From positions 1 to 62,481 of the IMG/VR virus record IMGVR_UViG_3300030103_001665: a DNA stretch of 62,481 bases; one strand, 5' to 3'. This document shows positions 16,256-61,648 of the stretch, one piece after another. The translations under genes were made by a program, and so were the position numbers. Under the pieces are notes generated by a model that saw only the letters and a list, made by a program, of their open reading frames with translations, was not told the DNA's origin and ran no database searches. The stretch's first letter is position 1; every line of letters starts with the position of its first letter. The stretch is from a virus. Taxonomy: Duplodnaviria; Caudoviricetes.

Positions 16256-16707
16256 CCTTTGAATATGCTTGTAACCTTTTCACTACTTCGACCACCGAAA
16301 TAAGCTAGAACAACAGCCATCATAACTTTTTCAAAAGTATCGTTCCATAATTCATTTATATGAAAAGGTATTGTTTCTACACTATCTAGTATACCCGCAA
16401 AAGAAAATACAACAATACACCATACTAAAACTAATGGACGTACATTTTTTGACATCCAAGAATCAGACATAGAATCTGCTTCCCACCTTGATGTTATAGC
16501 TTCTATTTCTTTATTCTGTTGTTCGTATATTATTTGTTGTAATTTTATCTTATCATCTGCAGGAGCATCTGATTTTATTATTTCAGTTATAGCTTCTTTA
16601 GGAGAAGTTACTCCTTGTAATACATTACCTAATGTAGGATTTATTACAGTTGCTGCGCCAAGCAATAATTGCCCAACGGTCGTATCTTTAAATGCTTTTT
16701 TTGACAT
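16252..16707 (-). CDS. Holin (3TM/GTA-holin-like)
   Basis: RWEADSMSDSWMSKNVRP, hydrophobic segments and AYFGGRSSEK motif. Confidence 0.7.
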   Translation of the reverse strand: MSKKAFKDTTVGQLLLGAATVINPTLGNVLQGVTSPKEAITEIIKSDAPADDKIKLQQIIYEQQNKEIEAITSRWEADSMSDSWMSKNVRPLVLVWCIVVFSFAGILDSVETIPFHINELWNDTFEKVMMAVVLAYFGGRSSEKVTSIFKG

Positions 16708-17993
16708 TAACTATTTTTATTAGTTGCACACCCAGCTTTACATCTACCTTTGTTAGTAAATACTACACCATCAATGACTGCTCTAATTCCACCCATTAAA
16801 TCAATATCAGGTATATGAAATCTAAAACTACCACCTGATGATTTACTACTTCCAGGAACTCCTAAATCTAAAGATGGAGGTGGTATTACATCTGGCTCTT
16901 CTACTGGTGTTGGTTCCGGTGGAAATACTTCTTCTGATACATTAACTATCTCTACAGCGTCAGTTTTTGGTGGACAATATCTATGTCCTTCTGGTTTTCC
17001 TGGTGAAGGACATGGAGCGTTAACAAACTCTTCCCATTCTTGATCAGGTTTAGCAGGATTATAAAAATCCTTACCTTCTCCCTCAATTCGTCTTCTACCA
17101 CCACCACCTGGTTCTTCTATAATTTCAGTTCCAGTTCCTGGTGTTACTATTCTTGTTATAATTTTATATCCTCCATCATCTAATTCTACTCTTTCTGTGG
17201 TAGTTACATTATCCTCAGGTCTATATACATAATCATAACCCTCTTGTTCATTGTTAGATCTTTCATCTGTACCATGATTTGATTGAAGAGGACTATTTTT
17301 CATCATGTTTAAAGCTGATCTTTCATCATCTTCAACTATAGTGTAACCTCTTGGAACAGCGTTATATCCTTCTCCTTTGTAATCTCCCATTACATAATTT
17401 TTATTAGGATTTCCAGCTACAAATTTTCCATCAACAATACTAACTACTCCTCCACCTTCTACCATCATTTCATATATTTGATCTCCAGTCATTTGCTCGG
17501 CAGGTATATTTTTATAAGCTTCTTTTTCTGAATCCCACTCTCCTTGTCTAACATTGTATTGACGTGTGCCAGATACACCTTTATTTTTTCTACCTCTATC
17601 AACTACAACCCTTCCATGTTGGTCTCTAAAAATATCTACACCTGTTAATCTACCAAAAAATCCTCTTTGTTTTTTAGATCTTTTAAAGTTTTTAATTTTA
17701 TCATAATCATCTGCTTTAAAATTACCACCAGCAATAGCTCCTTGATTATAATAATCTGCTAATTGATTAGCATACTCCATAGCTATTTCTTTTTCTGATC
17801 TTCCACCTCTAATTTTTTTATCGCCTCTTTGTCCAAACGTACTTTGTCCTTTTATTTCTCTAAACTGTCTTTGACCAGTAACATTTCTACCGTCATGCTG
17901 ATGTTCCCAGGGATTACCCGATCTATCTGTTACCCTGTGTTTTAAAGGACTTGTAATTTTGCCAAATGGATTGTTGTGTTGTTTATACCCCAT
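16707..17993 (-). CDS. Hypothetical modular protein with SP-motifs (candidate internal virion protein)
   Basis: 428 aa; MGYKQHNNPF start, SPLK and SPLQ motifs, Pro/Glu-rich C-terminal region. Confidence 0.65.
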   Translation of the reverse strand: MGYKQHNNPFGKITSPLKHRVTDRSGNPWEHQHDGRNVTGQRQFREIKGQSTFGQRGDKKIRGGRSEKEIAMEYANQLADYYNQGAIAGGNFKADDYDKIKNFKRSKKQRGFFGRLTGVDIFRDQHGRVVVDRGRKNKGVSGTRQYNVRQGEWDSEKEAYKNIPAEQMTGDQIYEMMVEGGGVVSIVDGKFVAGNPNKNYVMGDYKGEGYNAVPRGYTIVEDDERSALNMMKNSPLQSNHGTDERSNNEQEGYDYVYRPEDNVTTTERVELDDGGYKIITRIVTPGTGTEIIEEPGGGGRRRIEGEGKDFYNPAKPDQEWEEFVNAPCPSPGKPEGHRYCPPKTDAVEIVNVSEEVFPPEPTPVEEPDVIPPPSLDLGVPGSSKSSGGSFRFHIPDIDLMGGIRAVIDGVVFTNKGRCKAGCATNKNS

Positions 17994-17995
17994 AA

Positions 17996-18340
17996 TTAAT
18001 ATTTTTCAAATGGATCTGTTTTTGAATATGCTTCGGCTTCCCATGGTAAGTTTTGAGCGCCTTCTTTCATATCATCTCGTGAATATTTTTTACCTTTCCA
18101 ATAAACAAAATCTTCATCGTAATCTAAATCACCTCTTTGCATTTGATCTATGTGAACTTTTTCGTGTTCTATTACACTTTCTCTTTCTTCTGGATCGTTT
18201 ATTTTATTTGATACTAATATAGTACCATTTTTATTTGCTTTCCCTAAAACACCTTCTTCTAAATCAACATTATGTATAGGTGTATTATCTTCCATAAATG
18301 GAGCATTGATTTTAAAACCTTTACTTAATCTAAAAAACAT
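17996..18340 (-). CDS. Zincin-like metalloprotease
   Basis: VIEHEKVHIDQ (HExxH) with downstream PWEAEAY providing a candidate third ligand. Confidence 0.75.
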   Translation of the reverse strand: MFFRLSKGFKINAPFMEDNTPIHNVDLEEGVLGKANKNGTILVSNKINDPEERESVIEHEKVHIDQMQRGDLDYDEDFVYWKGKKYSRDDMKEGAQNLPWEAEAYSKTDPFEKY

Positions 18341-18344
18341 ATTA

Positions 18345-18497
18345 TTATTTATAAGGAAATTTTTTATTTAAATAGTTTTGTCTTTCTTGACAACCACAGG
18401 GTTTATTAAGGCTGCTGGCAATATTCTGCACAACAGCCTTAATACCTGTTTTGTTAGTGAACTTTGCGATTGAATCGCCTAATCCTCTAGACTTCAT
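18345..18497 (-). CDS. Small conserved phage protein (50 aa, CGC motif)
   Basis: Not in track; MKSRGLGDSIAKFTNKTGIKAVVQNIASSLNKPCGCQERQNYLNKKFPYK fills the gap exactly. Confidence 0.75.
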   Translation of the reverse strand: MKSRGLGDSIAKFTNKTGIKAVVQNIASSLNKPCGCQERQNYLNKKFPYK

Positions 18498-18499
18498 AC

Positions 18500-18901: not shown

Positions 18902-18967
18902 GATTTTTGTTTTTAATTGTTTTTGTTTTTGTTTTTGTTTTTGGTTTTATACAGTTCCATGACTGTT

Positions 18968-19384
18968 TTATTGTCCACCGAAAAGGGTGTGAATTTTAGT
19001 AGGTATATAACCTAACGAAACTGATGGATTAGAATTTACTTTTGAACCTTTTAACTTTTCCTCTCCTTTAGGAGCTCCATTTTTAGTATTGTCTTCTTTC
19101 TCTTCAGCTTCCTTTTTCTCTTTTTTCTTATCTTTATTTTCTTTAATAGCTTTACCTATATTAATTAAACCTTGAGTAAATTCTTTACCACCACTATTAA
19201 TAGAAGCATAGTTAGTTTTACTACTTAAACTGTAATCACCTGGATTAGCACTAACAGTAGGTACAGATATGAAATTTGTAGGCATACTGCTTTTATAACT
19301 AAATGGTGATCTATTATTAAACCCTATATTAAAAGAATTTTTATTACCTAAAAAGTTTGTTCTAAATTTTCCTATTGTTTCCAT
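18968..19384 (-). CDS. Hypothetical low-complexity protein
   Basis: 138 aa, K/E-rich patch, SPF motif. Confidence 0.6.
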   Translation of the reverse strand: METIGKFRTNFLGNKNSFNIGFNNRSPFSYKSSMPTNFISVPTVSANPGDYSLSSKTNYASINSGGKEFTQGLINIGKAIKENKDKKKEKKEAEEKEDNTKNGAPKGEEKLKGSKVNSNPSVSLGYIPTKIHTLFGGQ

Positions 19385-19385
19385 A

Positions 19386-19961
19386 TTATCCCGCGTGGTA
19401 ACCTCTTAAAGCAGCTTTTGCCTTTGATTCACTACCATATTTAGCTGGCCAAGGTTTATCTGTTTTGTTACTAATAACTCTCCATGCTCCACCCATTTGT
19501 TTAACACATCCGCTTCCACCTTCAGACTTTGCACATGCATTCATTGGTGAATCAGATCTTTCATCAATCATTTCATCAATCATTTGATTTCTTATTTCAC
19601 CTGATCTTTCGTCGTTTACTTTCACTTTTGGCTTAGGTCTTATGTGTCTAGTCATATTACCACGAGGTTGTGATCTTTCATCATCTACTTGAGCTTTTAA
19701 TTCATAATAAATATCTTGCTCATCTCCTTCATTTTTTCTAGCTATTTGCTTTGCTTCTCTTCTAATATGTCTATCATTATGTCTATGCATTGGCGAACAG
19801 TGCGAATTAGCTGGAGAATCATGATCATGTCTAACATTTTCTAAATAATGTAATCTTGCAGAATCTGACAAGTCTTTATTATATGCTTCTTTTGCATCAT
19901 ATCTCTCGTCTGCTCTTTTAGAAAAACGAGGGTGATTACCACTATATCTTTTATGTCCCAT
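19386..19961 (-). CDS. Hypothetical basic modular protein with SP-motifs
   Basis: 191 aa; SPAN, SPMH, SPMN and repeated DERS. Confidence 0.65.
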   Translation of the reverse strand: MGHKRYSGNHPRFSKRADERYDAKEAYNKDLSDSARLHYLENVRHDHDSPANSHCSPMHRHNDRHIRREAKQIARKNEGDEQDIYYELKAQVDDERSQPRGNMTRHIRPKPKVKVNDERSGEIRNQMIDEMIDERSDSPMNACAKSEGGSGCVKQMGGAWRVISNKTDKPWPAKYGSESKAKAALRGYHAG

Positions 19962-19963
19962 AA

Positions 19964-21010
19964 TTAACTCATTTTTGGATCAGAAGAGTAAGCTCCTTTT
20001 CCCATAGATTTTTTCATTCCTTTTGATTCGTCTCTACGATCTTTTAAAGATTGATTCATACTTGACTCTTTACCGTCTTTAGCTAAACTTTCGTCTAATC
20101 TCGCATTATATCCTTGTCTGTTAAATGGACTACTTTTGTGATGATGCTCATCTGCTTTAGTAGAATTTCTTGCTACGTGTTTTTTATAATCTTCATCACT
20201 TCCTGGATGATTTTTTCTTCCTCCTTTTGCTTTTACTGGTGAATTTGATCTTGGAGTTTTGTCATATTTTGGATGTTTAGCTGTGTGGTAAACCATTCCG
20301 TGATCTGTTGCTTCCCTTTTACTCATTTCACCATGTGACTTACCTGAATTTTTGTCTTTCATTTTAGCTGGTGATTTGGTAATAACAAAAGTTTCCCCAT
20401 GTAATACACCTTTTTTATGTCTACTAGTTTTTACTTTTCCTGAACCTGAAGCATCTCTAGTATCATAGTTTTCTATATTTATTCCACGTTTATCTGCTTT
20501 CTTTAATTTTCTTTTTAGAGATTTTAATTTTCTATCAAAACTTTTATCAACATTGTCAGTTCCAAAAGAAGCTTTTGCAGCATCAACTTGTTCTTGTTTT
20601 CTAGTAATACGTTTTTTAAGTCTATCTCCTTTTGCTTTTGCTGGAGAACCTTTAGCAGCTTCTTTCATTGGCTCAGTTTTATCACCATCTTTATCTAAAT
20701 CTAAAAAGTCTGGCTTAGCAGCTTTTGCCGGTGAATCTCCTTTTCTATGCATGTCATCTACGATAGGCATATATTTTAATTCATCAACTCCTTGAATTCC
20801 ATATTTGCTAGCGTTTTCCATAGGTGATTCATGACCTGCTTCCATAGGTGATTCGTGACCTGCTTCCATAGGTGATTCGTGACCTGCATACATTGGTGAA
20901 TTCATATACATAGCTGAATCTCTATGCATACCTTGCTTTTTTTCAGCTTTGTACACATGTAAAGCTGACTTCATCATTTTTACCGGGTTTTGTTTTTGTG
21001 AATAAGGCAT
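19964..21010 (-). CDS. Basic modular protein with multiple SP-motifs
   Basis: 348 aa; nine S-P-[MAVF] motifs and an EF-hand-like DLDKDGDKTE segment. Confidence 0.7.
   Translation of the reverse strand: MPYSQKQNPVKMMKSALHVYKAEKKQGMHRDSAMYMNSPMYAGHESPMEAGHESPMEAGHESPMENASKYGIQGVDELKYMPIVDDMHRKGDSPAKAAKPDFLDLDKDGDKTEPMKEAAKGSPAKAKGDRLKKRITRKQEQVDAAKASFGTDNVDKSFDRKLKSLKRKLKKADKRGINIENYDTRDASGSGKVKTSRHKKGVLHGETFVITKSPAKMKDKNSGKSHGEMSKREATDHGMVYHTAKHPKYDKTPRSNSPVKAKGGRKNHPGSDEDYKKHVARNSTKADEHHHKSSPFNRQGYNARLDESLAKDGKESSMNQSLKDRRDESKGMKKSMGKGAYSSDPKMS
20817..20887. repeat. 24-bp tandem repeat x3 encoding AGHESPME
   Basis: tccataggtgattc(a/g)tgacctgct repeated three times. Confidence 0.9.
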
Positions 21011-26229: not shown

Positions 26230-26650
26230 TATGTATAGAAGTTTGTAAAACTTTATCCATATATGTATTTCCTTTCATTATACTGTTTCTTCTTTCACTA
26301 GTTGGAATATCATCTTCACCTAGCATAATTCGGTAAATTCTTTGTATTAATTGTTTACCTTTAAAAGAAACCTTGTATATATTATATTTTTGAGTTGTTC
26401 TGTTTCTGTTTCTCCATACTACAACCCAATCACCTTGTATTAATCTATTCCATCTTCTATTTTCCCAACTATAAGAATAACTTCCCATTTTAAAATCTTG
26501 TATTGTAAATAAATCAATACAATCTAAATAAATTAATAATTCAAGGTCACTATCAGTTAAGCCGTTGTTTTTACAAGCCCATTTGCGTATTATACGGTAA
26601 TGTTTTAGCAAGTTTAAATCTTTAAGATCTCTTGCTTCTAGCTTTTTCAT
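26204..26650 (-). CDS. Putative winged-helix (MarR-like) DNA-binding protein
   Basis: GLTDSDLELLIYL...RLIQGDWV...YKVSFKGKQLI matches the wHTH pattern. Confidence 0.55.
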   Translation of the reverse strand: MKKLEARDLKDLNLLKHYRIIRKWACKNNGLTDSDLELLIYLDCIDLFTIQDFKMGSYSYSWENRRWNRLIQGDWVVVWRNRNRTTQKYNIYKVSFKGKQLIQRIYRIMLGEDDIPTSERRNSIMKGNTYMDKVLQTSIHNVNKDKNR

Positions 26651-26910
26651 AAAACAACGACGACGTCTTGCGCCTTAATAACATGATATAATTTTTTGTT
26701 TATTTCTATTTGATGACCAGCATGACGATCAAAAAATATTTTATTATCTTTTTTTAACCCTACAACTTCTTCACCAACAGAAACAACATTAGCTTCTATG
26801 TATCTAATATCACTTCTATCGTTTTTATTAAGAAGTAAACCACCTTCTGATTTAGTTATTCCTTCTTCTTCTGTTTTTTGTATAATTAAATTTCTACCTA
26901 TTGCTTTCAT
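26647..26910 (-). CDS. groES: Co-chaperonin GroES
   Basis: MKAIGRNLIIQK, TKSEGGLLL mobile loop, VVSVGEEV. Confidence 0.85.
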   Translation of the reverse strand: MKAIGRNLIIQKTEEEGITKSEGGLLLNKNDRSDIRYIEANVVSVGEEVVGLKKDNKIFFDRHAGHQIEINKKLYHVIKAQDVVVVL

Positions 26911-45039: not shown

Positions 45040-45067
45040 AAAGGGGAACTCGATTGAGCTCCCCTTT
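45040..45067. terminator. Bidirectional terminator between convergent blocks
   Basis: AAAGGGGAACTC-GATT-GAGCTCCCCTTT. Confidence 0.8.
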
Positions 45068-45112: not shown

Positions 45113-45733
45113 TTAACATCTCCATCTTGCTCTTGCAGCTCTACCTCTTTCTCCTGTCCAACCTTTTGATCTAGCACAAAATGATTTTCTTCTAGCTTTT
45201 TCTTTTTCACTCAACTCACTAACTGGTCCAGTTACAGCTGTTTTTAAATTGCTACCAGGATTTTTTCTTTTATATTCTTTAACACCAGCTTCAGTCATAC
45301 CGGCTCCTTCTTCTACTGTTCTAAAATTACGACCTTTACCTTTAGTGGTTTTAGCGGGTTCTTTAGATGATTTTCTAGTAGGAGCACCACATTCTTCACC
45401 AGTCTTTACATTAACCCAGTTTTCCTTTTCAAACCAGTCTTTTAATGTGGCTCCTTTTTTACGAGCTCCACTTACTTCTGACTGTTGAGATCTTTCTCTT
45501 CTACCTGATCTACCAGCTGATTCTTTAGCTCTAATAACTTTTTGCCTTTGTTCTTCACTCATGTTATTTACCTTAGATTTAGGTAAACAAACCTTAGTTG
45601 TACCACCACCTTTTGTAGCTTTAGCTGGTGATGATTTTCTACAACTACCTTTAGCACCTGGTTGTGTGCCTGGAACTCTTTCATAACCTTTCCAACAGTT
45701 AAGTGGTGATATGTTTCTATACGGATGTGCCAT
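45113..45733 (-). CDS. Basic modular protein with SP-motifs
   Basis: SPLN-CWKGY..., SSPAKA..., LKDWFEKENWV, RRKSFCARS modules. Confidence 0.7.
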   Translation of the reverse strand: MAHPYRNISPLNCWKGYERVPGTQPGAKGSCRKSSPAKATKGGGTTKVCLPKSKVNNMSEEQRQKVIRAKESAGRSGRRERSQQSEVSGARKKGATLKDWFEKENWVNVKTGEECGAPTRKSSKEPAKTTKGKGRNFRTVEEGAGMTEAGVKEYKRKNPGSNLKTAVTGPVSELSEKEKARRKSFCARSKGWTGERGRAARARWRC

Positions 45734-45735
45734 TA

Positions 45736-46749
45736 TTATTTCTTTTTACCTACGCCCCAATTTGAAGCTCCTCTTTTTCTACATTGAACTAATTGACCTG
45801 ATGCATAAGCGCTTGGCCAAACCTTTACAGCTGCTTTTACTTTATGATAACACGCATCTTTTTCACCTTTTTTTTTTAATGGAGACATCTTTAATTCTTT
45901 TAACTCTTTTTTACGCATAAAGTAATTGCTTCTAGGTTTATCAGCTTCGTAATGTGATTTTCTTTCCTTCATTGTAGTTCCATATAAAACAGAGGTTTTT
46001 AATTTCTCATCTTTTTTTTTTACTGGTTTTTTCTTTGCAAAAGGATCTATGTTTAATGGAGACATAGATGATTTTCTATTTGGAGCTAATTGCCATTTTT
46101 TAATTCCAGTTAGATCTTTTTCCTCAGCATCATTAGTAGGTATAAGTCTTAACTTCTTTTTAACAACATCATAATATTTTTCTCCTTTTTCCATATCATA
46201 TTCTTTTTGACCATCCGGTTTTTTAAGATATAATTCTTTTTCTCTTTTCCAAGCGTTTGATGCTGCTATACTATCATTTTCAGTAGCTGCTAACGGAGTA
46301 GCGTGCGGCATTTTAAATGTACCTATATTTTCTCTCATTTTTTCATTATGTTTAATTCCTTCTTTATTACCAGTTGTTCCTGGACTATTATATTTTCTTA
46401 CTTTACCCCAACCACCTGAGTGCATCATTTCTGAATCACAGTGATTAAATGGTGAAGATGATTCTCTTTTAAGTGCTGCTTTTAAAAATTTATAACCTTT
46501 ACTTAATCCTTTTGCAGCTAATCCAGCGGGTGCAAATGTTGTTGCAGCTTCTAATCCTAATTCCCATGGTTTTACCTTCTTATCACCGTCCCAATCTAAA
46601 TAATTTGTAACACGGTCAATAATTTTTTCACCTAGTTTTAATTTTTTTTTGTATGAACTTGGATTTTCTAATTTTCTTTTTTGAGTCATATTAGTACCCG
46701 GATCTCTATTTGCCCATTTAGCATCTGAATTTAACGGTGATTTTTTCAT
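45736..46749 (-). CDS. Basic modular protein with SP-motifs
   Basis: SPLN, SPFN, TPLA, SPLN, SPLK; last module KDACYHKVK...WPSAYASGQLVQCRK. Confidence 0.7.
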   Translation of the reverse strand: MKKSPLNSDAKWANRDPGTNMTQKRKLENPSSYKKKLKLGEKIIDRVTNYLDWDGDKKVKPWELGLEAATTFAPAGLAAKGLSKGYKFLKAALKRESSSPFNHCDSEMMHSGGWGKVRKYNSPGTTGNKEGIKHNEKMRENIGTFKMPHATPLAATENDSIAASNAWKREKELYLKKPDGQKEYDMEKGEKYYDVVKKKLRLIPTNDAEEKDLTGIKKWQLAPNRKSSMSPLNIDPFAKKKPVKKKDEKLKTSVLYGTTMKERKSHYEADKPRSNYFMRKKELKELKMSPLKKKGEKDACYHKVKAAVKVWPSAYASGQLVQCRKRGASNWGVGKKK

Positions 46750-47204
46750 ATTACTTTATACTTTGTTTTTCTATCGTCTTTATATGCTTTAAGACATCTG
46801 TTTCTGTTATCTTCTTCTGACACATATGATATATGTACCCAGTTCGGATTCATGTCCGTACCAAATTCCCAAATCATTTGATCAAAATCTAAATTTTCTT
46901 TTATCCAATTATACATTTCAGCGTTTGTTTTATAACCAAATACATCGTCAATGTCAATTGCTTGTCCTTTACAATGTTGAGATGTTTTTGACCCACCGAT
47001 CTTAGTGTTAAGTTCAGATGATCTAAAAAATGAATTTACTTTTATTGGACCTCCAACCCATTCTCTTAATGGTTCAAATATTTTTTCTGCTAAAATCTTC
47101 ATATTTTCTACCTGCGTAGGATTAGGAGTATTATCTATACATCTACGTTTAGCAGTATTAGAATGTATTGCTTCCGCGTACGTTATGTGATTACTTATTT
47201 TCAT
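46746..47204 (-). CDS. Endolysin, peptidase M15 family
   Basis: Start MKISNH; SFFRS, SQHCKGQAIDI and WVHISY zinc-peptidase motifs. Confidence 0.88.
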   Translation of the reverse strand: MKISNHITYAEAIHSNTAKRRCIDNTPNPTQVENMKILAEKIFEPLREWVGGPIKVNSFFRSSELNTKIGGSKTSQHCKGQAIDIDDVFGYKTNAEMYNWIKENLDFDQMIWEFGTDMNPNWVHISYVSEEDNRNRCLKAYKDDRKTKYKVI

Positions 47205-47208
47205 ATTA

Positions 47209-47352
47209 TTAACTTCCATTAAATACAGCGTAAGCATTAACTTTACGCTTTTTACCAAAAGATATTGTAGCTATTAATTCTCTTCTATCTTTTGATTTTT
47301 CTTCTTGTGGGTAATACTTAGGATTAGTACTGTTTAGTTTTCTTTTTTTCAT
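47209..47352 (-). CDS. Small basic protein (47 aa)
   Basis: Not in track; MKKRKLNSTNPKYYPQEEKSKDRRELIATISFGKKRKVNAYAVFNGS. Confidence 0.55.
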   Translation of the reverse strand: MKKRKLNSTNPKYYPQEEKSKDRRELIATISFGKKRKVNAYAVFNGS

Positions 47353-47372
47353 TTTAAAAAATAATTAACTAC

Positions 47373-47735
47373 CTATCTACCGTAATAATTTCTTACAGGC
47401 TTTTTCGGAAGTTTAGTAACCTCTTTTGACATTAAGTTATTTTCATTTTTTCCTAAAATATACCCACCTGTTGCTGCGGCGGCACCACCTATTCTCGATG
47501 TTAGAGATGGCTTTTTTAAAGTACCTACAACCGGAACATTTGTCGGTTTAATAGTTGCTTCAAAAGGAATTCTATTTTTATTTAAAAGTTTTAAATTTTT
47601 AGCAGGTACAGCCATAGGCTTTGATTGCTTTTTTAGGTGTTTCTTTAAAAAGTATTTTCCTATGTCTTTAAAAGGATTAAATTGAGCTGGACTACTTGTA
47701 CCAGCTTTTCCTGTATTTCTATATGGATTTGCCAT
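47373..47735 (-). CDS. Basic protein with MANPY...SSPAQ leader
   Basis: N-terminus resembles that of 45113..45733 (MAHPYRN). Confidence 0.65.
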   Translation of the reverse strand: MANPYRNTGKAGTSSPAQFNPFKDIGKYFLKKHLKKQSKPMAVPAKNLKLLNKNRIPFEATIKPTNVPVVGTLKKPSLTSRIGGAAAATGGYILGKNENNLMSKEVTKLPKKPVRNYYGR

Positions 47736-47737
47736 TG

Positions 47738-48148
47738 TTAAAATTTATTTGCGTTATTTATTTCGTTTATTGATTCTTGTATTTCTTTTAAGTCTGCTGG
47801 CATAACAAGATCTAAACCAGCTTTGAACACGATTTCTTTAACGCCATCTTTAAATATAATTAAAGTTGGTGCCATACGTACTCTATATTTTTTCTTTGCT
47901 TCAGGGGCTTTTGATATATCTACTCTATAATAAATTACATCTTTTAGCTCTTGCCACTCAGCAAAACAATTTGCTTCATTAAACTTAGCCCAAAACTCTA
48001 CCACAACTGGTTTTGTTTTATCATCACCAAAAGCTTTATTAGTATTAATAGCTTTTTCAAAACTACTATCATCTATCCAATATTCCTCAGGAACATCTTG
48101 TTGACTAAAAGATAAAAAAGGTATTAAAAGTAAAATTAAGTATTTCAT
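47738..48148 (-). CDS. Secreted thioredoxin-fold protein lacking CxxC
   Basis: Signal peptide; KPVVVEFWAKFN...RVDI...MAPTLIIFKDG. Confidence 0.75.
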   Translation of the reverse strand: MKYLILLLIPFLSFSQQDVPEEYWIDDSSFEKAINTNKAFGDDKTKPVVVEFWAKFNEANCFAEWQELKDVIYYRVDISKAPEAKKKYRVRMAPTLIIFKDGVKEIVFKAGLDLVMPADLKEIQESINEINNANKF

Positions 48149-48435
48149 TATCTATTTTTTTGAATGTCATATAATCTTTCATCAATCTTACCAAGATCTT
48201 GTAGTATTTTATCTACATCTTCTTGAGTATCCATAATTGTTTGACGAATTAACTCGTCCTTTAAATCATATTCAACTCTATCAATAACAGGTTCAGGCAT
48301 TTGCATAGCAAGAGCAATATCCGATTGTAGCGCAAACCACATTGTGGTTAATGATACAACTCCTCCAATTATTATTCCTATTGTTTTAAGATCTAGTGTT
48401 ATTTTAGTTGATTCCCCTATTTGTGGTGCTTCCAT
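48148..48435 (-). CDS. Single-TM membrane protein with coiled coil
   Basis: IGIIIGGVVSLTTMWFAL followed by a heptad-like C-terminus. Confidence 0.65.
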   Translation of the reverse strand: MEAPQIGESTKITLDLKTIGIIIGGVVSLTTMWFALQSDIALAMQMPEPVIDRVEYDLKDELIRQTIMDTQEDVDKILQDLGKIDERLYDIQKNR

Positions 48436-49117
48436 TGCCTCTACTTATGTTGTTATTACTTGGTTTACTCATTGATGGTGAATAGCTTGGTTTAGAATAA
48501 GTAGGTGTAGAATTATAACTAGGTCGAGAATAATTGTTACTAGGTTTATAATTATTACTAGGTTTATAATTATTAGTAGGTTTATATACTGGTGGTTTAT
48601 AAGAATTATTTACAGGTTTAATTCTTGGTATAATAACTATAGGTTTTACTCTAGGTTTAGCTCTATTATTTGCTATTGCAGTTTCTAAAGATCTAGAGGT
48701 TCTTCTACTATTATTATATACTATGTTATAACTTTGATTATGAAATGGTCCTTGTAACATAGGATCTTGCCAAGGTCTTTGCCATCTCCAAGGTCTCATA
48801 TACCAATCCCAATAATTCCAAGGTCTATAGAAAAAAGAATTGTAACCAAAAACCCATGGATCATATATAAAGTTATAATCTAACCACAAAGGTCTAGTAT
48901 GCCAATAAGAATAATAAGGTTGATAATAGTGTAATCTAGGTTTTATAGGTTTAAACTCTAGTCTTATTATATTAGCATTATAACTTGTAAATATAGAAGT
49001 AGCATCTTGACCTTCTTCTAAATATATAGTATCTGATTGTGTAATAAGCTTATAGCTACTGCAACTAGCAAACGCCGCAATAACCGCCGCATAAAGGACA
49101 ATTTTCCATAATTTCAT
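48404..49117 (-). CDS. Lipoprotein with W/Y/P-rich region and YKPSNN repeats
   Basis: Lipobox FASC; repeats at about 48520-48605. Confidence 0.7.
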   Translation of the reverse strand: MKLWKIVLYAAVIAAFASCSSYKLITQSDTIYLEEGQDATSIFTSYNANIIRLEFKPIKPRLHYYQPYYSYWHTRPLWLDYNFIYDPWVFGYNSFFYRPWNYWDWYMRPWRWQRPWQDPMLQGPFHNQSYNIVYNNSRRTSRSLETAIANNRAKPRVKPIVIIPRIKPVNNSYKPPVYKPTNNYKPSNNYKPSNNYSRPSYNSTPTYSKPSYSPSMSKPSNNNISRGNGSTTNRGIN

Positions 49118-50307
49118 TATTTAAGTGTTATGTTCAGACCAACTGAACTGTTATATATTTTACTATCCCAAAACTTAGTATACTCTCCTTCAAAAAATAT
49201 ACCCATATTTTTACTAAGCTTCCAACCAAATTGTACTCCGGTTTGATAATCTTCCCATTGTTCTTTCTCAGCATCTTCTACTAATCCACCAAGTCCCCAG
49301 TTGTTTCTATTGTGATAACTAAAAGCCTCATCACCTTTTACATAATCATGATATGGTAATAAGTAAGAACCATAAGCATGGAGCCAAAAGTTATTTTTAT
49401 AATGATAATAGTCAAAACCGACCACAGGTGATACAACACCAAAAGCATCTATACCTTCCCATATTTCATCATTATAACGATTCATCAAATCAGTAAATAC
49501 TGTTTGCCTGAACTGTAAATCAGTATAAGCTACGGTTTCACCTTGTTCATTAATCCAATACCAATCAGATACTGTTTCGCCTGTATAATCATCTTCATAT
49601 GTATAATAGATGTCATCATAACCATAATAAAAACCAAGTGTATACCACGGGTTTACTGCAAAACCGTCCTCAGTAGTTTCATTCAACCATATTTCTACAG
49701 GATTGTAACCATAAGGACGCTCATGAGTTCTAAAAATAGCGCCTGCACTTAATGAAAACTTTTTACCAATAGGTAGTTTAGCTCTTACCTCAGCAGATTT
49801 ATAATCAAAGTTTATTTTACCTTGTTTTCTGCTTTCAACTTTTATCATGTGGTATTTACCACTATGTTTTAAAAAATATCTGTGATTTTTAAATACATCA
49901 TTTCTAGTTCTTTCTTTTTCAGTATGAAATATATATTCAAAACCTTTAATAGATGAATTAGGAGCTGTCATAGCTACGTTAGATTCACCACCATCATAAT
50001 ATTGTTTACCTTTTATTTCATAATCAAACCTCGCGATCTTACGAACACCAAATCCGTAACGATAATCATAGTCATAATAATCAGTTCCATCTACTACAAC
50101 AGGAACATCATATAAACTTCCATTAGGATTTGTTCTTACAAAATAACTTGGTGCATTTTCTTTTGCATTTTTAACATCACCAGCTACATAAAACGTACCG
50201 TATTTAAATAATTCATTATAAATAGATTTAAAAAATTTACCTTTTTCTTTTTCTTGAGCTGATAAAGAAAAGCTTAGTAGAAATATAATAGCTAATATTT
50301 TTTTCAT
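49117..50307 (-). CDS. Putative outer-membrane beta-barrel protein
   Basis: Signal peptide ending SAQ; aromatic-rich alternating strands (TGVQFGWKL, GIFFEGEY, SSVGLNITLK). Confidence 0.6.
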   Translation of the reverse strand: MKKILAIIFLLSFSLSAQEKEKGKFFKSIYNELFKYGTFYVAGDVKNAKENAPSYFVRTNPNGSLYDVPVVVDGTDYYDYDYRYGFGVRKIARFDYEIKGKQYYDGGESNVAMTAPNSSIKGFEYIFHTEKERTRNDVFKNHRYFLKHSGKYHMIKVESRKQGKINFDYKSAEVRAKLPIGKKFSLSAGAIFRTHERPYGYNPVEIWLNETTEDGFAVNPWYTLGFYYGYDDIYYTYEDDYTGETVSDWYWINEQGETVAYTDLQFRQTVFTDLMNRYNDEIWEGIDAFGVVSPVVGFDYYHYKNNFWLHAYGSYLLPYHDYVKGDEAFSYHNRNNWGLGGLVEDAEKEQWEDYQTGVQFGWKLSKNMGIFFEGEYTKFWDSKIYNSSVGLNITLK

Positions 50308-50522
50308 TTATTTTTTGTTTTACGTGATTTTCTTTTTCTTTGTAAAGAATCCCACTCTTTTTTTAATATTGTTTTTATAGTTATAACATTTTTACATGTA
50401 TCTGTTGTTATAACTTTTACTCGGTAATTTTCAATTTTTTCTACTTTAACTGTAATACATTTTTTTTGCGCATTAATTGTTAAAGAAAAAGATAATAATA
50501 AGATTAGAATAATATTTTTCAT
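50304..50522 (-). CDS. Small secreted basic protein
   Basis: Signal peptide ending NAQ; two Cys; K/R-rich tail. Confidence 0.6.
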   Translation of the reverse strand: MKNIILILLLSFSLTINAQKKCITVKVEKIENYRVKVITTDTCKNVITIKTILKKEWDSLQRKRKSRKTKNK

Positions 50523-50615: not shown

Positions 50616-53600
50616 TTATTTTTTAGGCATTAACCAATATTCTAAATCACCCGTAGGTCTTGCGATTTGTATAAAATCTACATTTAACTTTCCATCAGGT
50701 TTACCTTTTGTCATTGGTATTCTTTTATAACCTTTAGTTTTTAATTTATTAGCTTCATTTTTATATTTTGTTTTTACAGCTTCATCTTCATCTTTTTCTT
50801 TATCAATAGTTGTTTGTAATCCCCAGTATGGTAAACCAAGTTCCCAACCAGAATATCCAAACATTAAAGATACTCTTTGCCAAATTTCAGTATCTTTATC
50901 TACAGCTTGCTTTAAGTTCATCATTATTCTTGCTGCTCTATCTAAAGGAATATTAGTTGTAGCTGATACAATTTGAGCAATAGATAAATAAGCTGGATTA
51001 TCTAAATTAAACCCTCTACGTTTAATCTCTTTTCTATTCCAAGAAAAAGTTTTTGCTGCACTTCTAAGTTTTCTAACTTTAGAATCAATAGCTGGTGAAA
51101 AATTAAACACTTCACTTACAGCATCTTCATACTTAGGATTTTTCTTAGCTCCTTGTTGTGTTAGTTTAATTATAACATCTTTAACTGTTGCAACAGCTGC
51201 ACCACCATACCCTAAACCTCTTAATATAGAATCAACCATACCATTAGCTATATTACCAGCTCTATCTTCTGCTGTTCTTTCTTCTTCATCATCTGATCCA
51301 AAAGCCAAAGCAAACACCGCTTGTTGCATAGCGTTAAATATTAAGTTTTGTACAAAACCATAATAAGCTATTTTAGATAAGTTTGTTTTCCAATCGCCTC
51401 TACCATTAGCTAAGTCTAATGCAGATTTTTTCATTATTCTAGCGTACTGCATAGGAGTGTTAGCAAAGTTAAGTATTAATCTACCAATACTACTTGCTTG
51501 TTGCATTGATATTCTATCAGTTCTACTTGATTGCTGTGATTCTTCTGATATTTGATAAAAATCATCAAATGCTTTAGCTTCTGCTTCAGCTTTAGTATAA
51601 ACATTACCTGTATCTATATTTACTTGTTTTAGTAAAGCATTTACTCTATTTCTATAAAAACTTGCACCACCAGTTGCTATTGCCATACTATCTGCAAATC
51701 TTGTTAATACAAAACCTTTATTAAGTAAATAAGCTATAGTACCTTTCATACCACCTTTTCTAGCGGCTTCTGCTATTTCTGATTCAGCAACGTTTATTTT
51801 TAAACCATTACGTCTTTGTACTAAATAATCAGAGTTTAACAACGTCATTACATCTGACCAGTATTGCTTTTGATTAGCAAACGCTTTTGATGCAGCTACT
51901 GGATTATTATCTGACCAGTTTAAAAAGTTTACACTAGATATAAGCTGTAATGTAGCAGATCTCATATTTAAAAACATAACTGCACCAACAGAATTATTTA
52001 ACCAATCTAACAAGTTGTTAACTTGAGGGTTCATACCTATTGGTCTGTTACTACCAGATTTCATTCTACCTAAAGAATTTTTCAATGCTAGTATAAAATT
52101 ATTTCCGTATAAAGCTTCTAGTTTATTTAGGTTTTTATCAGAGAATATTATATCTACATTTTGTTGCCAATTTTGTAACGCTTCTTTTCTACCTGCTTTA
52201 TTTAAATTTTGTATAATATCACTAGTAATATTACCAGCCACCCAATTATTTCCAGGTTTTGGATATGATTTACCTTTTTGAATAAATGCTATTTTTTCTG
52301 CAAATACTTTTAAATCAGCATTGTTTTCTATTTTATCAACTAATCTATTTAAATCTCTTGTAGAAAGCCCAGGTATTTCCATACCCTGCATGTTCCATAT
52401 ATAAACTCTTAAAGCTTGTGAGTGAGTAAAATTACCTACACCAACTGGTTTGTTTAAGTTTTTAGGAATATTATCTATATTTTTTCTTAAAGCTTGAAAA
52501 TCATTTGCCACAGATATTTTATCTGATATTACTTGTTGTTCTGCTTTATTAAATGGATCAAATAAATTATCTTTAAACCATTTTTTAGCTAAGTTACCTT
52601 TTTCACCTTTTGGTAATATTTTATATAATAAACCAGCAAAGTCTTCTGCTGATGGTGGAATAAAGAACTCAAATGTACCTACTTTTCTACCAGTTGTTTT
52701 AGCTCTAGCTTCTGAATAAGTTTTATACCATTTTTTTCCGCTTTGTTGCTCTATTATAACATTAAACTCTTTATCTAAGTTTTTTACTTTATTTTTCTTG
52801 GCCTGCTGTACTTTAGATTTAACATCTACTTGGTCAAGAATGTTTTTTACAGCTTGAACATTGGGTAAAGCATCGTCAGCAAAATAAAAATCATTATATC
52901 CTTGAGCTGTTTTATCTAGTACCCATAACGCTTTGGCATCAGGTGATCCATCTTCTAAACCTGTTATGTTTTCTAAAGGTATGTTTAAACCAATACCATC
53001 TAAAAACGCTTTAATAGATACCGCAGAAGCTTGTGGTCTAGCTGTTAAAACAAATATATCACCACTCCCAAACTTTTCTTGACGCTTTAAAGCTAAATCA
53101 GCTAATGGTCCTTTTTTTCCTTTTATTACTTTGTTAAATTCACTAAAATCAAATTCAGCACCTTGCTCTTGTAAGTTTTCAGATTCAACAGCAAACTCAG
53201 CTGGTGTAATTTTTTTAATACTACCATCAGGCATATTAACAATTACTTTGCTTTTGCTATAAGCTAACGTATCATCAAAATCAAATACACTAATACCTTT
53301 TGTAGGAGTATTAATATCTCTAGCTTTTTGAGCAGTTTGATCTGCATTAGACATGTCAACTATAGATTGCTCTGTAGTACCATTTTCTTTTATTAAACCA
53401 AATATTTTTTCTTTATTGTTATTTACTTGTTTAAAAGATTTTTTATTTGTTTTGTTTGCAGCTTCTAATTCTTTTTTAGCTTTATTTATAGTAGTTTCGC
53501 CTTTAAAAACCTTAACTAATAAATTATTCTGCATGTTTATATTATCAGTATTTTGATTAGCTTTAGATAAACCAAGTCCTAAACTTTCAGCGATAGTTAC

Positions 53601-56600
53601 TATTTCTCCATCTTTATAAGTAACATATTCATTTAAATTTATTTCAGGATTTCCTAATAAATATCTTACCCAAGTATTAGGTTTGTCCATGCTAAAAAAA
53701 TCACTAGGCAACTGACTTCTATAACCAGCTAAAGCTATAATGTCATCATCAGTTTTTAATAATTGACCTTGTGTATAATTATCTTTTAAAAATTTAAAAT
53801 CTTTATTTACGCTATTATTAATAAGCATTTCTAACACAACCTTAGTAGCGTTGCTTGACGGTAAAGTATGTTCAGCTACAAAATTTTTAGCATTAGAATC
53901 CAGTTGATTATTAGTTGAGAAAAATTTAATAGGAGCTAAAACTCTCATAGGATGTGTTGATATATTACCTTGAGTATTCAACCAAGTTCCCCAAAACTCT
54001 AATCTTTCTTTTATTATTTTACCATTACTATCTCTTATATCAGTATTTATACCGTCTATTATCTTTTTTAATACTTTAATTTTATTTTCTTGAAGCTCTA
54101 TAAATTTCTTGTCTTTTAATAAAGCTTTTCTTTTTTCAGGCTTCATCTTAGCGTATTTAGCTTGTTCAGCTTCTGCTTCTTTTAATATATTAAAATCTTG
54201 TTCAGTAAAAATTTTACCATATTTTGGACCTGAAAACAAAGATGTTTTAGATAAATCAGTTAATTCGTTTATATTTTGTTTTACTCTTTTATTAAATATA
54301 GATCTACCACTATCAGCCCAAGATTTTGTATTTAAGAAAAAAGCTGTTCCAAAATTATCTAAGTTTCTTATAACGCTTTCATCTCTGTTTCTTTTTTGCT
54401 CTGCATTAAAACCATTAGATAAAGCTTTGCCTTTTTTCTTAGCAGGATATAAATCATAACCAGCAATATTTGCTAATTGTCTAACACTCGATTTAACTAC
54501 ATTACCTATTTTTTTTAATTCATCTATTGTAAGTTTAGGTTTTTTAGCTGCAGGTTTTTTAATAAAGTCTTTTATTGATTTTGTAAAATCTTTAAGAGCA
54601 GAAGCTAAAGATCTACCAGCATTTCTAGCAGCTCTAAGTGTTCTAAGTCCAGCTTCAACAACACCAGTTAAAGCATTCATAGATAAGTTTGTTTTTCTAA
54701 ATGTTTCTAACTGTGAGATAGCGTCACTTAAAAAGTCCGCTTCAATGTCATTTATATTTTCTTCTGTTATTCTATTATTAATAACATCTTCAACAGTATT
54801 TTCTACAACATCTAAAGATGTATCTTCTAGATTTCTTTTATCTAAATTATATTCAACTTCATTTATAAATTGCTCTGCAGTTAGATTTGATCCTTTTAAT
54901 TCTAATCTACCTTGTAAATCAGTCATAAACTGCTGATCACCTCTTAATTCTTGCATTTGCTCTATAGCAATGCCTTCACCTAACAGACTATATAATGATT
55001 GTTGACGTTTTTCATTAGCTTTGAAATAATCTTTTACAGCTTCTAGTTGAGCATCTGTTATAGCTGGTATTTTATAAACTTGTTTTCTAAAGTCAGTTCT
55101 TTTACCATCTTCTATCTTAGTAGTAGGTGTAGTACCAGTTTGTTGAATATTAAATAATTTACCAAATCTTCTTTTTATCTGAGCAATAGGGATTGTAGCA
55201 ATAAAATCTTTAGTAACTAAACGATCTACATTGTTATTGTATTGTTCGCTGTTCCATTTACCAAGTTTATCTTTTATAAGTTTTCTATAAGCAGGTGTTT
55301 GAGTTTGCTTAACAATAGATTGTGCTACAACTTTTGGTGAAGTGCTTTCAGTTGCTACAGCTCTATTAATATCGTCTTTAATTTTAACTGTTTGCTCTGA
55401 TCTTACTTCAGGTGTAATATTTTCAGTTATTACTTCTAATGTAGCAGGATAAACTTTAGCTCTTGCAGTTTCAGTTGGCGCTACATCTATATCTACTTCT
55501 TCAGCTACAACTTCTCTAGCTTCTTGCTTATCAAGAGTTGTTATATCTCTTTGACCTATATATTTATCATAAATACCTTGTGCTTTAGGAGCAATATTAG
55601 CAGTTACAAATGTAGAAAAAGATCCTTTGTCTGGAGACCATCTTTCCATTATACCCGCAAACTCCTTGTTTATTTCAGCTATAGCATCTTCTCTAGCCAT
55701 ATCACCTTTCCGAGTATCAAACATGATAGCTGCTAAACCTATTTTATTGTATTGATCTAGTAAAGCCTCAACATCTACATTAGCAGGGTTTTCTTGATAT
55801 TGTCTAGCTAATTCATCGGCTTTTATTGATGGTTTTCTAGTTGGTAAAATACTCATACCAACAGTTGCATCTCTTTCTGCCTGTACTTCATTAACAAGTG
55901 TTCCTAATTCAACATCTATTTCTTTAACTCTATTAGTTTGATTTTGAGTTAACGCAGCATCATTTACTTCTTTAATAGTTTTTTGTAAAATATTTTTTTC
56001 TTTCAATAAACCAACTGCAGTTGCGTTAAGATTTAATCCAACAGGTTTTAATTGATTAACAGCGCTTTGCGTGTTTCTATAATTTAATTTTATTTGATCA
56101 GCAGTGTTTCTGTTTATTTCACCTATTTCAATTTTTTTAGTAATTTGATCATCAAGTATTTGTTGAGAATTTGATATTTGAGTTATATTTAAACCTTGTA
56201 TAGGAATTGTTTGGTTAAAATCTGGATTATAAATAGTTGTTATATCACTTATGTTATAATCTTCATTTATAGCTTTTAAATTATTGTTTATCTTATTTAT
56301 ATTTACAGCTTCTTTTAAACCACTTGTAACTTGCATAATATTTATAGGTCCAGCATATGTAGCTCCTCCACCTACTCCCAATAAAAAAGCATCACTAACC
56401 CCTTCAAATGGATCTTTACCTTTTATCATGTTTTGTGTAATCTGGGTTGCTACTTCTTCTATACCTTCTCCTAAAGCACCAGCTGGAGCTCCTATTTTTT
56501 TAAGAGCTGTGGAATACATTTCAATTAGTCCATTTTTAAATACTTTAACGCCTTCTTTTTTACCTACTTTTAATATTATATCTTTGTAAACTCTTCCTAT

Positions 56601-60214: not shown

Positions 60215-61648
60215 TTATCTATTGTTGTAACTAGAACCAACGCTAAAAAGCTGAACAGGATCGGTGTCTGTAGCGTTATTTCCAGTTTTTAATCTTACAT
60301 TTAAAAACATACCTTTAATACCGGTAGTTGCATTATTAATTAATACTTGTTGAGGTATATTAAATGAAGATCCTTTTAAAGCTGCATAATATACATTTTG
60401 TTTTCTATCAAAACCAGCTCTATATTGTACGTTTGTATTTGGATCTACATAATAACCATCATCATAATTAAGAATATCAATACCCGGATATGTAGCGTTT
60501 GTATTAGGTAGTGATGGGTCTTGTGGATTTGTATCTATACCAGTTTTATCTGTAGTTATATTTGTAGCTGACCAACCATTACTACCAGTATAACTAATAG
60601 TTTTAAAAGTTTTAGTAATAGTAGGTATTGGATTAAATACAAAATCTACTGAAGATCCATATTGTTTTCCGTAAAAATTGTTGTATAAATTACTACTATA
60701 TTGTAACCATATTGCGTTATTTTTAAAGGTGTAATATTGACCTTGAGAACTAGTAGATAATTGAGGTGTATAGTCTTGGAAACTAACCCAACCATTTATT
60801 AAAGGATCAAAGTGTAAAGTTCTTAATCCACCTAATGTAACTACATAATTTTTTTGATATATGTCAAATCCTCCAGTTATTTCATTAGATAATGAAAGTG
60901 TAGTAACTGGTTCATTGCCACCAAGATTTTGCAATATATCTCTAAAATAATCTATCATACCATAATTAGATATTTCAGTGATTCCATTAGCGCCTAATTT
61001 TAACACAGCGCTTCTATCTCTATCTACAAAATATTTATTATAACCATATACAGCAAAAGATCCGGGATCTTGAGATATACCAAAATTACCTTCAAAAGCA
61101 GTAGGAGTTCCTATTACTAATCTACTATTCGCTTGTAATGGTTGACCTTCTTGAGTAAATATAACATCTTTATCTATTGGTGCTCTATTTACTTTACGCT
61201 CTTGTAGTATGATTAAATTAGTATTTTCTGCATATAGTTTTTGTATACTACCAGATGCTGGATCAACAGACCTTGTAATATCTTCACCAATAGGGAATTG
61301 ATTAGTATTATTAATACCATTTTTAGCATTATAAACACCTGAATATATTAAAGCATTTTGTCTTGTAATTTGTTTACTTTCTTCTTCTACAATATAAGCT
61401 TTATTACCAAAATCAACACTAGTATTATTATAACCACCTTTTATTCTAGCTTCTTCTACAAACCAATCTTCATAAGAGTTGTTATTAATATATCCTGCAC
61501 CTGTAACTAAATTAGGTGTACCTGTAGTTGTACCACCACTAGTACTAGTCACCGCGCCATCTTGTTCTCTTTTTTGTTCTTGAGCAAAGTTTTTTAATCT
61601 TTTTAACCAAAAGGTGTTAAAGTATGATACTTCTAATGTAGTTGCCAT
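60215..61648 (-). CDS. Tail stabilisation protein (gp10-like C-terminal portion as a separate gene)
   Basis: LIYSGVYN...INNTNQF...GSIQKLYA...FGISQDPGSFAVYG...WVSF. Confidence 0.7.
   Translation of the reverse strand: MATTLEVSYFNTFWLKRLKNFAQEQKREQDGAVTSTSGGTTTGTPNLVTGAGYINNNSYEDWFVEEARIKGGYNNTSVDFGNKAYIVEEESKQITRQNALIYSGVYNAKNGINNTNQFPIGEDITRSVDPASGSIQKLYAENTNLIILQERKVNRAPIDKDVIFTQEGQPLQANSRLVIGTPTAFEGNFGISQDPGSFAVYGYNKYFVDRDRSAVLKLGANGITEISNYGMIDYFRDILQNLGGNEPVTTLSLSNEITGGFDIYQKNYVVTLGGLRTLHFDPLINGWVSFQDYTPQLSTSSQGQYYTFKNNAIWLQYSSNLYNNFYGKQYGSSVDFVFNPIPTITKTFKTISYTGSNGWSATNITTDKTGIDTNPQDPSLPNTNATYPGIDILNYDDGYYVDPNTNVQYRAGFDRKQNVYYAALKGSSFNIPQQVLINNATTGIKGMFLNVRLKTGNNATDTDPVQLFSVGSSYNNR

Follow-up and report, generated by a model that had tools for sequence, protein, structure and literature searches.

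A Ser-Pro motif at module boundaries of basic proteins in an uncultured podophage: a candidate tag-and-cleave signal for virion cargo

Results

Two clusters of motif-rich basic proteins

The stretch of DNA analysed here (the window) is a single contig of 62,481 bases, IMG/VR virus record IMGVR_UViG_3300030103_001665, with a CheckV completeness of 97%. It represents the near-complete genome of a marine podophage related to phages of Flavobacteriia. A recurrent four-residue motif, S-P-[A/M/L/F]-[N/K], was found in seven window proteins: three of cluster 2 (P1, P2 and P3) and four of cluster 1 (16707-21010). On the sequence evidence presented below, this Ser-Pro (SP) tag would most probably direct the cutting and packing of proteins that travel inside the particle. 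The cluster proteins contain 20-26% Lys plus Arg (K+R); coordinates are given in Table 1.

P1 begins with the leader MAHPYRNI, followed by SPLN (residue 9), the CWKGYE module, SPAK (residue 35), a KGGGT...LKDWFEKENWV...CG unit, a degenerate junction and a DUF6321 module. P2 consists of MKK-SPLN (motif at residue 4), a lineage-specific N-terminal part, SPFN (residue 99), the HCxSEMMH module, a middle part, SPLN (residue 230), SPLK (residue 289) and the KDACYHKVK..WPSAYASG..CRK module (KDAC module). P3 carries a leader, SPAQ and FNPF; no relative of P3 was found in IMG/VR or in the collected loci, and it is an orphan.

The original prediction, made from the sequence of the window, had described cluster 2 as three open reading frames (ORFs) with similar leaders and interchangeable modules joined by the SP motif. 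All three ORFs were present on the minus strand at the coordinates claimed, with SP motifs exactly as listed. The leaders MAHPYRNISPLN, MANPYRNTGKAGTSSPAQ, MGYKQHNNPF and MPYSQKQNPV and every quoted module were found in the window translations. A further copy, SPGT at residue 122 of P2, was absent from that list and lies inside a conserved module. The placing of the motif at P1 module boundaries held for the first two junctions but not for the junction before DUF6321, which is degenerate in the window. LKDWF had been named as a module; the stretch is present, but it is the second half of the KGGGT...LKDWF...CG unit and not separate.

In comparisons of cluster 1 with cultured phages, the 428-amino acid (aa) protein had no match, and the 348-aa protein matched through one module only, KPDFLDLDKDGD, which is common to the 'virion protein' of cyanophage S-SCSM1 (two records). 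Residues 38-66 of the 348-aa protein hold three GHESPME(A/N) repeats after NSPMYA, with a high content of His, Glu and Met; similar runs of MGHSPME occur in relatives. Judged by their sequence, these repeats could bind metal or could be a run of very short cleavage units.

Table 1. Positions of the features described in the text
Feature	Position	Strand	Details
Cluster 2
P1	45113..45733	-	206 aa, 24% K+R; final gene of late minus-strand block (ORF; orthologue alignment)
P1 SPLN junction	45698..45709	-	Directly before CWKGYE module; SPFN in L005, L006 and L008
P1 SPAK junction	45620..45631	-	Before KGGGT unit
P1 degenerate junction	45350..45376	-	RKSSKEPAK, before DUF6321 module
P1 DUF6321 module	45149..45310	-	Residues 142-195; Pfam PF19846, 46.5 bits (gathering 28.5), E 5.8e-12
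P2	45736..46749	-	337 aa, 23% K+R (ORF; alignment); partial matches to phrog_727, phrog_3477 and phrog_38880
P2 SPFN junction	46444..46455	-	Directly before HC.SEMMH module; SPMN, TPLN, SPAK or SPLN in relatives
P2 SPLK junction	45874..45885	-	Before KKGEKDACYHKVK; Glu at equivalent site in T4-like phages
P2 KDAC module	45751..45873	-	73-81% DNA identity with T4-like cyanophage genes (blastn)
P3	47373..47735	-	120 aa; MANPYRNTGKAGTS-SPAQ-FNPF, SPAQ at residue 15
Cluster 1
428-aa protein	16707..17993	-	Leader MGYKQHNNPFGKITSPLK
HExxH protein	17996..18340	-	114 aa, zincin-like; HEKVH at 18152-18166; tagged N-terminus MFFRLSKGFKINAPF; inside cluster 1, conserved synteny
138-aa protein	18968..19384	-	Conserved N-terminal 28 aa ending NNRSPF
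191-aa protein	19386..19961	-	3 motifs; SPMN directly before conserved CAKSEGGSGC module
348-aa protein	19964..21010	-	9 motifs, including GHESPMEA octapeptide repeats; KPDFLDLDKDGD module
Other features
Terminator-like hairpin	45040..45067	.	Strong, 12-bp stem; between convergent ribonucleotide reductase gene and P1; end of late block
Peptidase M15 endolysin	46746..47258	-	Between P2 and P3 (lysis gene context); Pfam 1.1e-16; PHROG endolysin 1.2e-33
Virion protein with crassvirus muzzle C-terminal domain	60215..61648	-	Pfam PF25729, 52.8 bits (cut-off 27)

Enrichment of the motif in the cluster proteins

SP[LAMFVI] occurred 7 times in cluster 2 and 15 times in cluster 1, compared with composition-based expectations of 0.66 and 1.14, respectively. 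For neither cluster was the observed count attained in any of 20,000 shuffles that preserved composition. The residue after the SP dipeptide was hydrophobic in 7 of 8 cases in cluster 2 and in 15 of 16 cases in cluster 1, relative to a background of ~0.25. When 75 ORFs of the window were examined, 22 of the 30 copies of SP[LAMFVI] were in the seven cluster proteins. Among 955 distinct proteins of relatives, 73 motif-rich proteins hold 1.58 motifs per 100 aa, and the other 882 hold 0.089. In these motif-rich proteins, 90% of the residues after SP were A, M, L, F, I or V, and the motif is best written S-P-[A/M/L/F/I/V]-[N/K/H...].

The codons of the motif vary (Ser TCA, TCT, TCG or AGT; Pro CCA, CCT or CCG). 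Selection is therefore on the peptide, not on a DNA recombination site, and the idea of a conserved DNA linker was rejected because of this variation, which includes AGT vs TCN. The O-glycosylation motif of Bacteroidota is D-S/T-hydrophobic. This candidate was rejected on sequence, because in the present motif a Pro stands in between and because the proteins lack a signal peptide. The scaffold-like protein (8668-9879) was considered as a substrate; its single SPIQ is kept in the closest relatives only, and it was therefore not counted.

The motif at points of gene rearrangement

IMG/VR scans yielded 80 loci for P2, 43 for P1 and 80 for the HExxH protein of cluster 1; the P2 scan included four loci of the window's lineage, L005-L008. 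In alignments of relatives, the motif abutted the first conserved residue of the module (SPFN before HC..., SPLN before CWKGY). In the wider set, it was located 0-4 residues ahead of the starts of CWKGY, KGGGT and DUF6321 in many independent arrangements. The HC.SEMMH module of the window and L005-L008 always came directly after SPFN, SPMN, TPLN, SPAK or SPLN. At the DUF6321 junction, orthologues carry TTPFQK or TSPVDK, or a separate gene begins there with MAYIQNNPFSR.

In L007 three modules are separate genes, each starting with a short leader plus the motif; the HC.SEMMH gene starts MENKKGSPAK. L006 has an extra inserted module flanked by SPLN and SPVD, and the deletion joint in L008 is SPLK. 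The motif marks points of gene fission, insertion and deletion in IMG/VR relatives. Untagged stand-alone genes start with M plus 2-5 aa directly before KGGGT, which would be about the N-terminus that a junction cut leaves. In MW202828 (locus L004), a relative that has no tag, a 96-aa basic protein (38779-39069) contains an RKSFRARH stretch resembling the DUF6321 core.

A leader common to unrelated proteins

The N-terminal leader has the consensus M-A/G/S-F/Y-K-x(2-4)-[N/S/P]-P-[F/L/Y]. HExxH proteins start with MAFKINPPY, MAFKMNGAPY, MAFKMDSPI and the like, and that of the window with ...GFKINAPF. Similar starts with the motif within 30 residues (MAFKLKGFTPY, MAFKMKSPL, MAYIQNNPF, MGYKQHNNPF) head DUF6321, CWKGY and KGGGT modules and many others. 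The leader regular expression matched 105 of 1,368 distinct proteins; the motif was present within 30 aa in 86 of these 105 and in 168 of the 1,263 others. When families were defined on residues 26 to end, the leader was found in 23 of 210, including 39 of the 72 members of the HExxH family, and in none of the core structural families among the 210. The window starts MAHPYRN, MANPYRN, MGYKQHNNPF and MPYSQKQNPV are, by sequence comparison, variants of the shared leader. A short leader common to unrelated proteins, as known from T4, is thus present here as a sequence pattern.

Lineage-specific junctions before shared modules

The original prediction held that these modules also occur in T4-like marine phage proteins behind Glu, and module searches together with a table of upstream contexts bore this out. 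The KDAC module was found by tblastn in 365 phage records, nearly all of T4-like cyanophages, and the DUF6321 module alone in pelagiphages (HTVC010P gp43) and others. Modules of P1 co-occur in a 926-aa protein of ACG-2014f and in a 529-aa protein of S-E7 ('structural protein, T4 GC0119'). In both phages the modular gene comes after the small-terminase gene, and in ACG-2014f one more gene separates it from the large-terminase gene downstream. Homologues in cyanophages carry annotations as structural or virion proteins.

Upstream contexts were tabulated module by module after duplicate removal, with Glu scored within 6 residues (Table 2). Modules were preceded by Glu in T4-like phages and by [S/T/N]-P-hydrophobic, not L/I-x-E, in the window's lineage. 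The correspondence was exact for IQE-KKGEKDA (T4-like) vs SPLK-KKGEKDA (window). The modules have homologues in other contexts, and module boundaries coincide with the SP motif. The wider proposal of a mobile cargo pool re-tagged by each lineage is partly supported: its comparative part stood (same modules, lineage-specific junctions, different candidate proteases).

Table 2. Sequence context upstream of shared modules
Module	Loci	Upstream context
KDAC	T4-like	Glu within 6 residues, 14/18; Glu 8-10 residues back in other 4
KDAC	Unassigned	Glu, 21/21
KDAC	Window-like	xP-hydrophobic, 8/10; Glu, 1; neither, 1
CWKGY	T4-like	Glu, 13/14
CWKGY	Unassigned	Glu, 20; xP-hydrophobic, 3
CWKGY	Window-like	xP-hydrophobic, 9/14; motif further upstream in 3 more
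HC.SEMMH	Window-like	xP-hydrophobic, 5/5
DUF6321	Window-like	xP-hydrophobic, 9/18; G-P-L (outside pattern), 5; gene starts, 2; other, 2
KGGGT	Window-like	xP-hydrophobic, 5; gene starts, 11; degenerate or other, 7

An Atlas look-up placed the KDAC module near DUF5872-labelled clusters (label on only 13-19% of members). Viral proteins in this look-up also showed fusions of the module with several different domains, which is consistent with a mobile module. Three IMG/VR contigs of jumbo size (L009, L019 and L073; 300-328 kb) that encode Peptidase_S77 carry the KDACYHKVK module with an FDEAAGEKDA junction. A literature search for 'DUF6321' found no papers.

An HExxH protein and the distribution of protease genes

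Residues H59, E60, H63, E101 and E103 are invariant in the HExxH family (34 sequences; relatives of 100-115 aa), and E101 and E103 are candidate third metal ligands. An AlphaFold2 (AF2) model from the single sequence was unusable, with a predicted local distance difference test score (pLDDT) of 39.9; the fold was repeated with an alignment and reached pLDDT 78. Almost all structural neighbours of this model were zincins (PprI/IrrE, SPRTN, proabylysin, CapP, lugdulysin, Wss1, selecase). A predicted complex of the HExxH protein with residues 1-42 of P1 scored 0.11, which is evidence neither way. The family comprises 1,636 protein clusters in a collection of 5.8 billion proteins and occurs in 286 IMG/VR stretches.

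Searches found the HExxH gene in 13 of 15 window-type contigs, the remaining two being 72% and 59% complete, but in none of the five Glu-type contigs. Peptidase_S77 (PF03420) was present in all 5 Glu-type contigs (174-328 kb). The same search found it in none of the five window-type genomes at least 95% complete, the window included. MW202828 and elemoE have neither motif-rich basic proteins nor the HExxH gene. Protease genes are thus correlated with the junction type of the lineage. The HExxH protein is the best candidate for the processing protease; alternatively, it may be another cargo.

Among the late genes that were scanned, the sole sign of a further protease family was a sub-threshold Peptidase_S24 match (E 0.021; 14.9 bits vs cut-off 23.3). 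The match is to a 201-aa protein (14735-15340, minus strand) that adjoins the terminase in all relatives, including MW202828 and elemoE, and is annotated as GroES-like in elemoE. In L160, a C-terminal extension beginning after a TPF motif is fused to the HExxH protein. In L216 and L217 (IMG/VR, 51.8 and 46.3 kb), the HExxH domain continues into a fused C-terminal tail of ~260 aa with a Cys-rich basic module at its end.

Genomic context

The large terminase of the window showed 62% identity to that of the uncultured podophage MW202828 and 45% to those of Flavobacterium elemoviruses. All 87 phage records matched by the terminase were Flavobacterium, Cellulophaga, Tenacibaculum or Maribacter phages or MW202828. 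The gene content includes portal, PHROG 'virion structural proteins', tailspike, GroEL/GroES and ribonucleotide reductase. The phage-encoded GroES and GroEL pair (26647-28435, minus strand) is also annotated in MW202828 and elemoE. The muzzle domain suggests a crass-like tail with room for cargo, the likeness to Crassvirales being judged on this C-terminal domain alone.

Cluster 2 is at the 3′ end of a long minus-strand late block, in the order 2307-aa giant protein, small genes of lipoprotein or membrane type, thioredoxin-like protein, P3, M15 endolysin, P2 and P1. No sequence match for the giant (50616-57539, minus strand) was found in Pfam, PHROG or PDB; relatives have giants of 2133-3859 aa at the equivalent site. 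By analogy with crass-like phages, it might be a virion-packaged enzyme. Genes of signal-peptide or lipoprotein type adjoin the endolysin (47738-50522, minus strand) and may form a lysis or envelope cassette; they encode the thioredoxin-like protein, a 95-aa membrane protein (phrog_1009), a Tyr/Pro/Asn-rich lipoprotein-like protein of 237 aa, and proteins of 396 and 72 aa. A 47-aa basic ORF (47209-47352, minus strand) overlaps the start of the endolysin gene. It is kept in L005, L006, L007 and L169 with 51-85% identity and is therefore probably a real small gene.

Discussion

The sequence patterns, and the analogy with T4, point to a tag-and-cleave system for virion cargo that resembles the T4 capsid targeting sequence (CTS) system, with a new signal and possibly a metalloprotease. 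We regard the chances that this reading is correct as about evenly balanced. P1-P3 and the proteins of the 16707-21010 cluster would be late-expressed, basic, largely disordered carriers whose small Cys-containing modules come from a pool common to marine phages. In this lineage the proteins open with a short portable leader, and a four-residue junction, [S/T/N]-P-[A/M/L/F]-[N/K], precedes each module. The leader would bring the protein into the assembling particle, as the T4 capsid targeting sequence does, and a phage protease, for which the 114-aa HExxH protein (17996-18340) is the best candidate, would cut at the junctions. Small basic peptides would be released and would stay with the DNA or be ejected with it. 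The scissile bond may follow either Pro or the fourth residue. The second option would best match the N-termini of the Glu-type modules; the first would put the invariably hydrophobic residue at position P1′, and zincins usually prefer a hydrophobic P1′. The modules are small and basic with 2-4 Cys, and DNA condensation or anti-defence activity after injection are guesses at their role, made by analogy with T4 internal proteins.

Several points weigh against this reading. The lineage is uncultured and known here from sequence alone; we infer packaging, cleavage, scissile bond, enzyme identity and peptide function. N-termini were taken as the first ATG of each ORF. The N-terminal SPQF of the capsid protein does not fit the motif, and no conserved motif was found in the major capsid or scaffold-like protein; therefore, this is not a classical head-maturation system. 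Junctions were degenerate or of other types in 7 of 23 KGGGT contexts and at the window's own DUF6321 junction, and the 8-residue spacing of GHESPMEA is odd for cleavage products. The HExxH protein matched no Pfam family, and a PDB profile search gave a chance-level match only. Its fold matches are weak (Foldseek E at least 0.2; VIA Z 4-6.2, below the safe level of the tool). The HExxH gene also occurs in five contigs with an untagged KGGGT module; it therefore tracks the lineage, not the tag on a given gene. Loci were retrieved from related genomes with P1, P2 and the HExxH protein as queries, and as a result these families are over-represented and co-occurrence counts are phylogenetically non-independent.

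It is unlikely, though a real minority possibility, that the motif remains uncut and serves in docking or packaging, by fitting a pocket of a capsid, portal, ring or scaffold protein, or of the HExxH protein as adaptor, so that multi-module proteins are held in the particle. Stand-alone genes retain the motif, as a docking signal would require, and a strictly hydrophobic residue after Pro would fit any binding pocket. There is a precedent in crAss001, where cargo C1 binds portal wing loops and ring proteins by short segments (PMC10172136). However, docking leaves unexplained why the motif is exactly at module starts, why it replaces the Glu junctions of phages with a Glu-cutting protease, and why untagged genes begin where a cut would fall. 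If the motif were a mere structural linker or turn, or an SPXX-type DNA contact in basic DNA-binding proteins, the proteins need not be in the virion at all. In histone tails, S/T-P-X-X turns make contact with the minor groove of DNA, and the 20-26% K+R content of the cluster proteins would suit such a role. In SPKK/SPXX, S/T-P is followed by basic residues, whereas here Pro is followed by a hydrophobic residue and then N/K/H, not by the two basic residues of SPKK. A linker also needs neither a conserved leader common to 23 families nor a switch to Glu along with the protease type, and we consider this explanation very improbable.

The enzyme is a separate question. The junctions may be cut by an enzyme of the host or by one of the phage that escaped recognition; the HExxH protein would then be one more tagged cargo, e.g., an ejected effector protease directed against host proteins. 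This we judge to be quite unlikely. The HExxH protein does bear the leader just as cargo does, tails resembling cargo are sometimes fused to it, and several of its nearest folds (IrrE/PprI, CapP, SPRTN/Wss1) belong to proteins with cellular targets. On the other hand, T4 gp21 too has, close to its N-terminus, a site that matches its own logo and that has been suggested to target it to the prohead (PMC9026906), and a leader on the enzyme is therefore to be expected. The conserved 201-aa protein with the sub-threshold Peptidase_S24 match could be an alternative enzyme, but it is also present in MW202828 and elemoE, which have no tagged proteins, and no other protease family turned up in the late genes scanned.

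If the tag-and-cleave reading is correct, loading of the head by tagging and cleavage has evolved at least twice, on differing chemistry, and one pool of small cargo modules serves phages of different families, which give the modules new addresses. There would then be a readable sequence rule predicting the packaged or injected proteome of abundant uncultured ocean phages, including candidate anti-defence or DNA-condensing peptides, and a compact leader that might, like the T4 CTS, be put to use in bringing foreign proteins into particles. Sequence and model would also allow a wider reading, which is possible but doubtful. In a large clade of uncultured marine Bacteroidota podophages, a portable N-terminal address (M-A-F/Y-K...N/S-P-F/L) would load at least 20 unrelated families, and a packaged mini-zincin of ~110 aa, bearing the address itself and possibly DNA-activated like SprT-type or adenovirus proteases, would cut polyproteins at Ser-Pro-hydrophobic junctions to yield small basic peptides. 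This would be the first metalloprotease-based, proline-directed virion processing, convergent with the Glu-directed serine-protease system of T4-like phages on a shared module pool. Our literature search found no paper on a Ser-Pro tag or on a metalloprotease in phage cargo processing.

The closest known system is that of T4. Its gp21, a serine protease, cleaves L/I-x-E sites behind the Glu, and residues 1-10 of IPIII serve as the capsid targeting sequence (PMC9026906). The likeness consists of a leader of ~10 residues common to unrelated, fast-evolving basic proteins (IPI-III, Alt, gp67 and gp68 in T4), a short recognition motif recurring inside core proteins, and an enzyme with a matching N-terminal site (PMC9026906). 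In contrast to T4, the signal here is [S/T/N]-P-hydrophobic, the window has no Peptidase_S77 gene, the candidate enzyme is an HExxH protein of ~110 aa and not a serine protease, and the capsid and scaffold proteins have no site. The virus is a podophage with crass-like tail parts, recognised solely through its genome. In the phiKZ and SPN3US giant phages, many packaged (inner-body and ejection) proteins are cut at a short lineage-specific motif (PMC9026906). The enzymes there are gp21 homologues cutting after Glu, whereas the motif here has no Glu and no homologue is present.

The modules themselves are most similar to those of the Lys-rich virion protein encoded between g16 and g17 in T4-like cyanophages (S-E7 'T4 GC0119'; ACG-2014f gp131; phrog_727/phrog_3477), in which KDACYHKVK..WPSAYASG, CWKGYE, LRDWF and DUF6321 are strung in one late protein. 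That protein has Glu-type junctions, a gp21-type protease is encoded, and the order and number of modules differ; in the window the modules are divided among several genes, and every gene has a leader of its own. The modelled HExxH protein resembles minimal zincins (proabylysin, selecase), SprT/Wss1, IrrE/PprI and CapP in its size of ~100 aa, in the placing of HExxH on a long helix that follows a small beta-sheet and in a conserved Glu further downstream, although the structural similarity is weak (Z 4-6.2, 9-19% identity) and there is no sequence-family match. crAss001, which stores cargo proteins (gp45, gp46) in capsid and tail, is comparable as a Bacteroidota podophage with a muzzle-type tail and space for protein cargo, but no processing or tag is reported in the accessible part of that study (PMC10172136). 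The crAss001 cargo proteins have no sequence relation to P1-P3. By sequence, the system in the window would thus be of a known kind, T4-type tag-and-cleave cargo; new are the Pro-based signal and the zincin candidate, probably a different class of enzyme.

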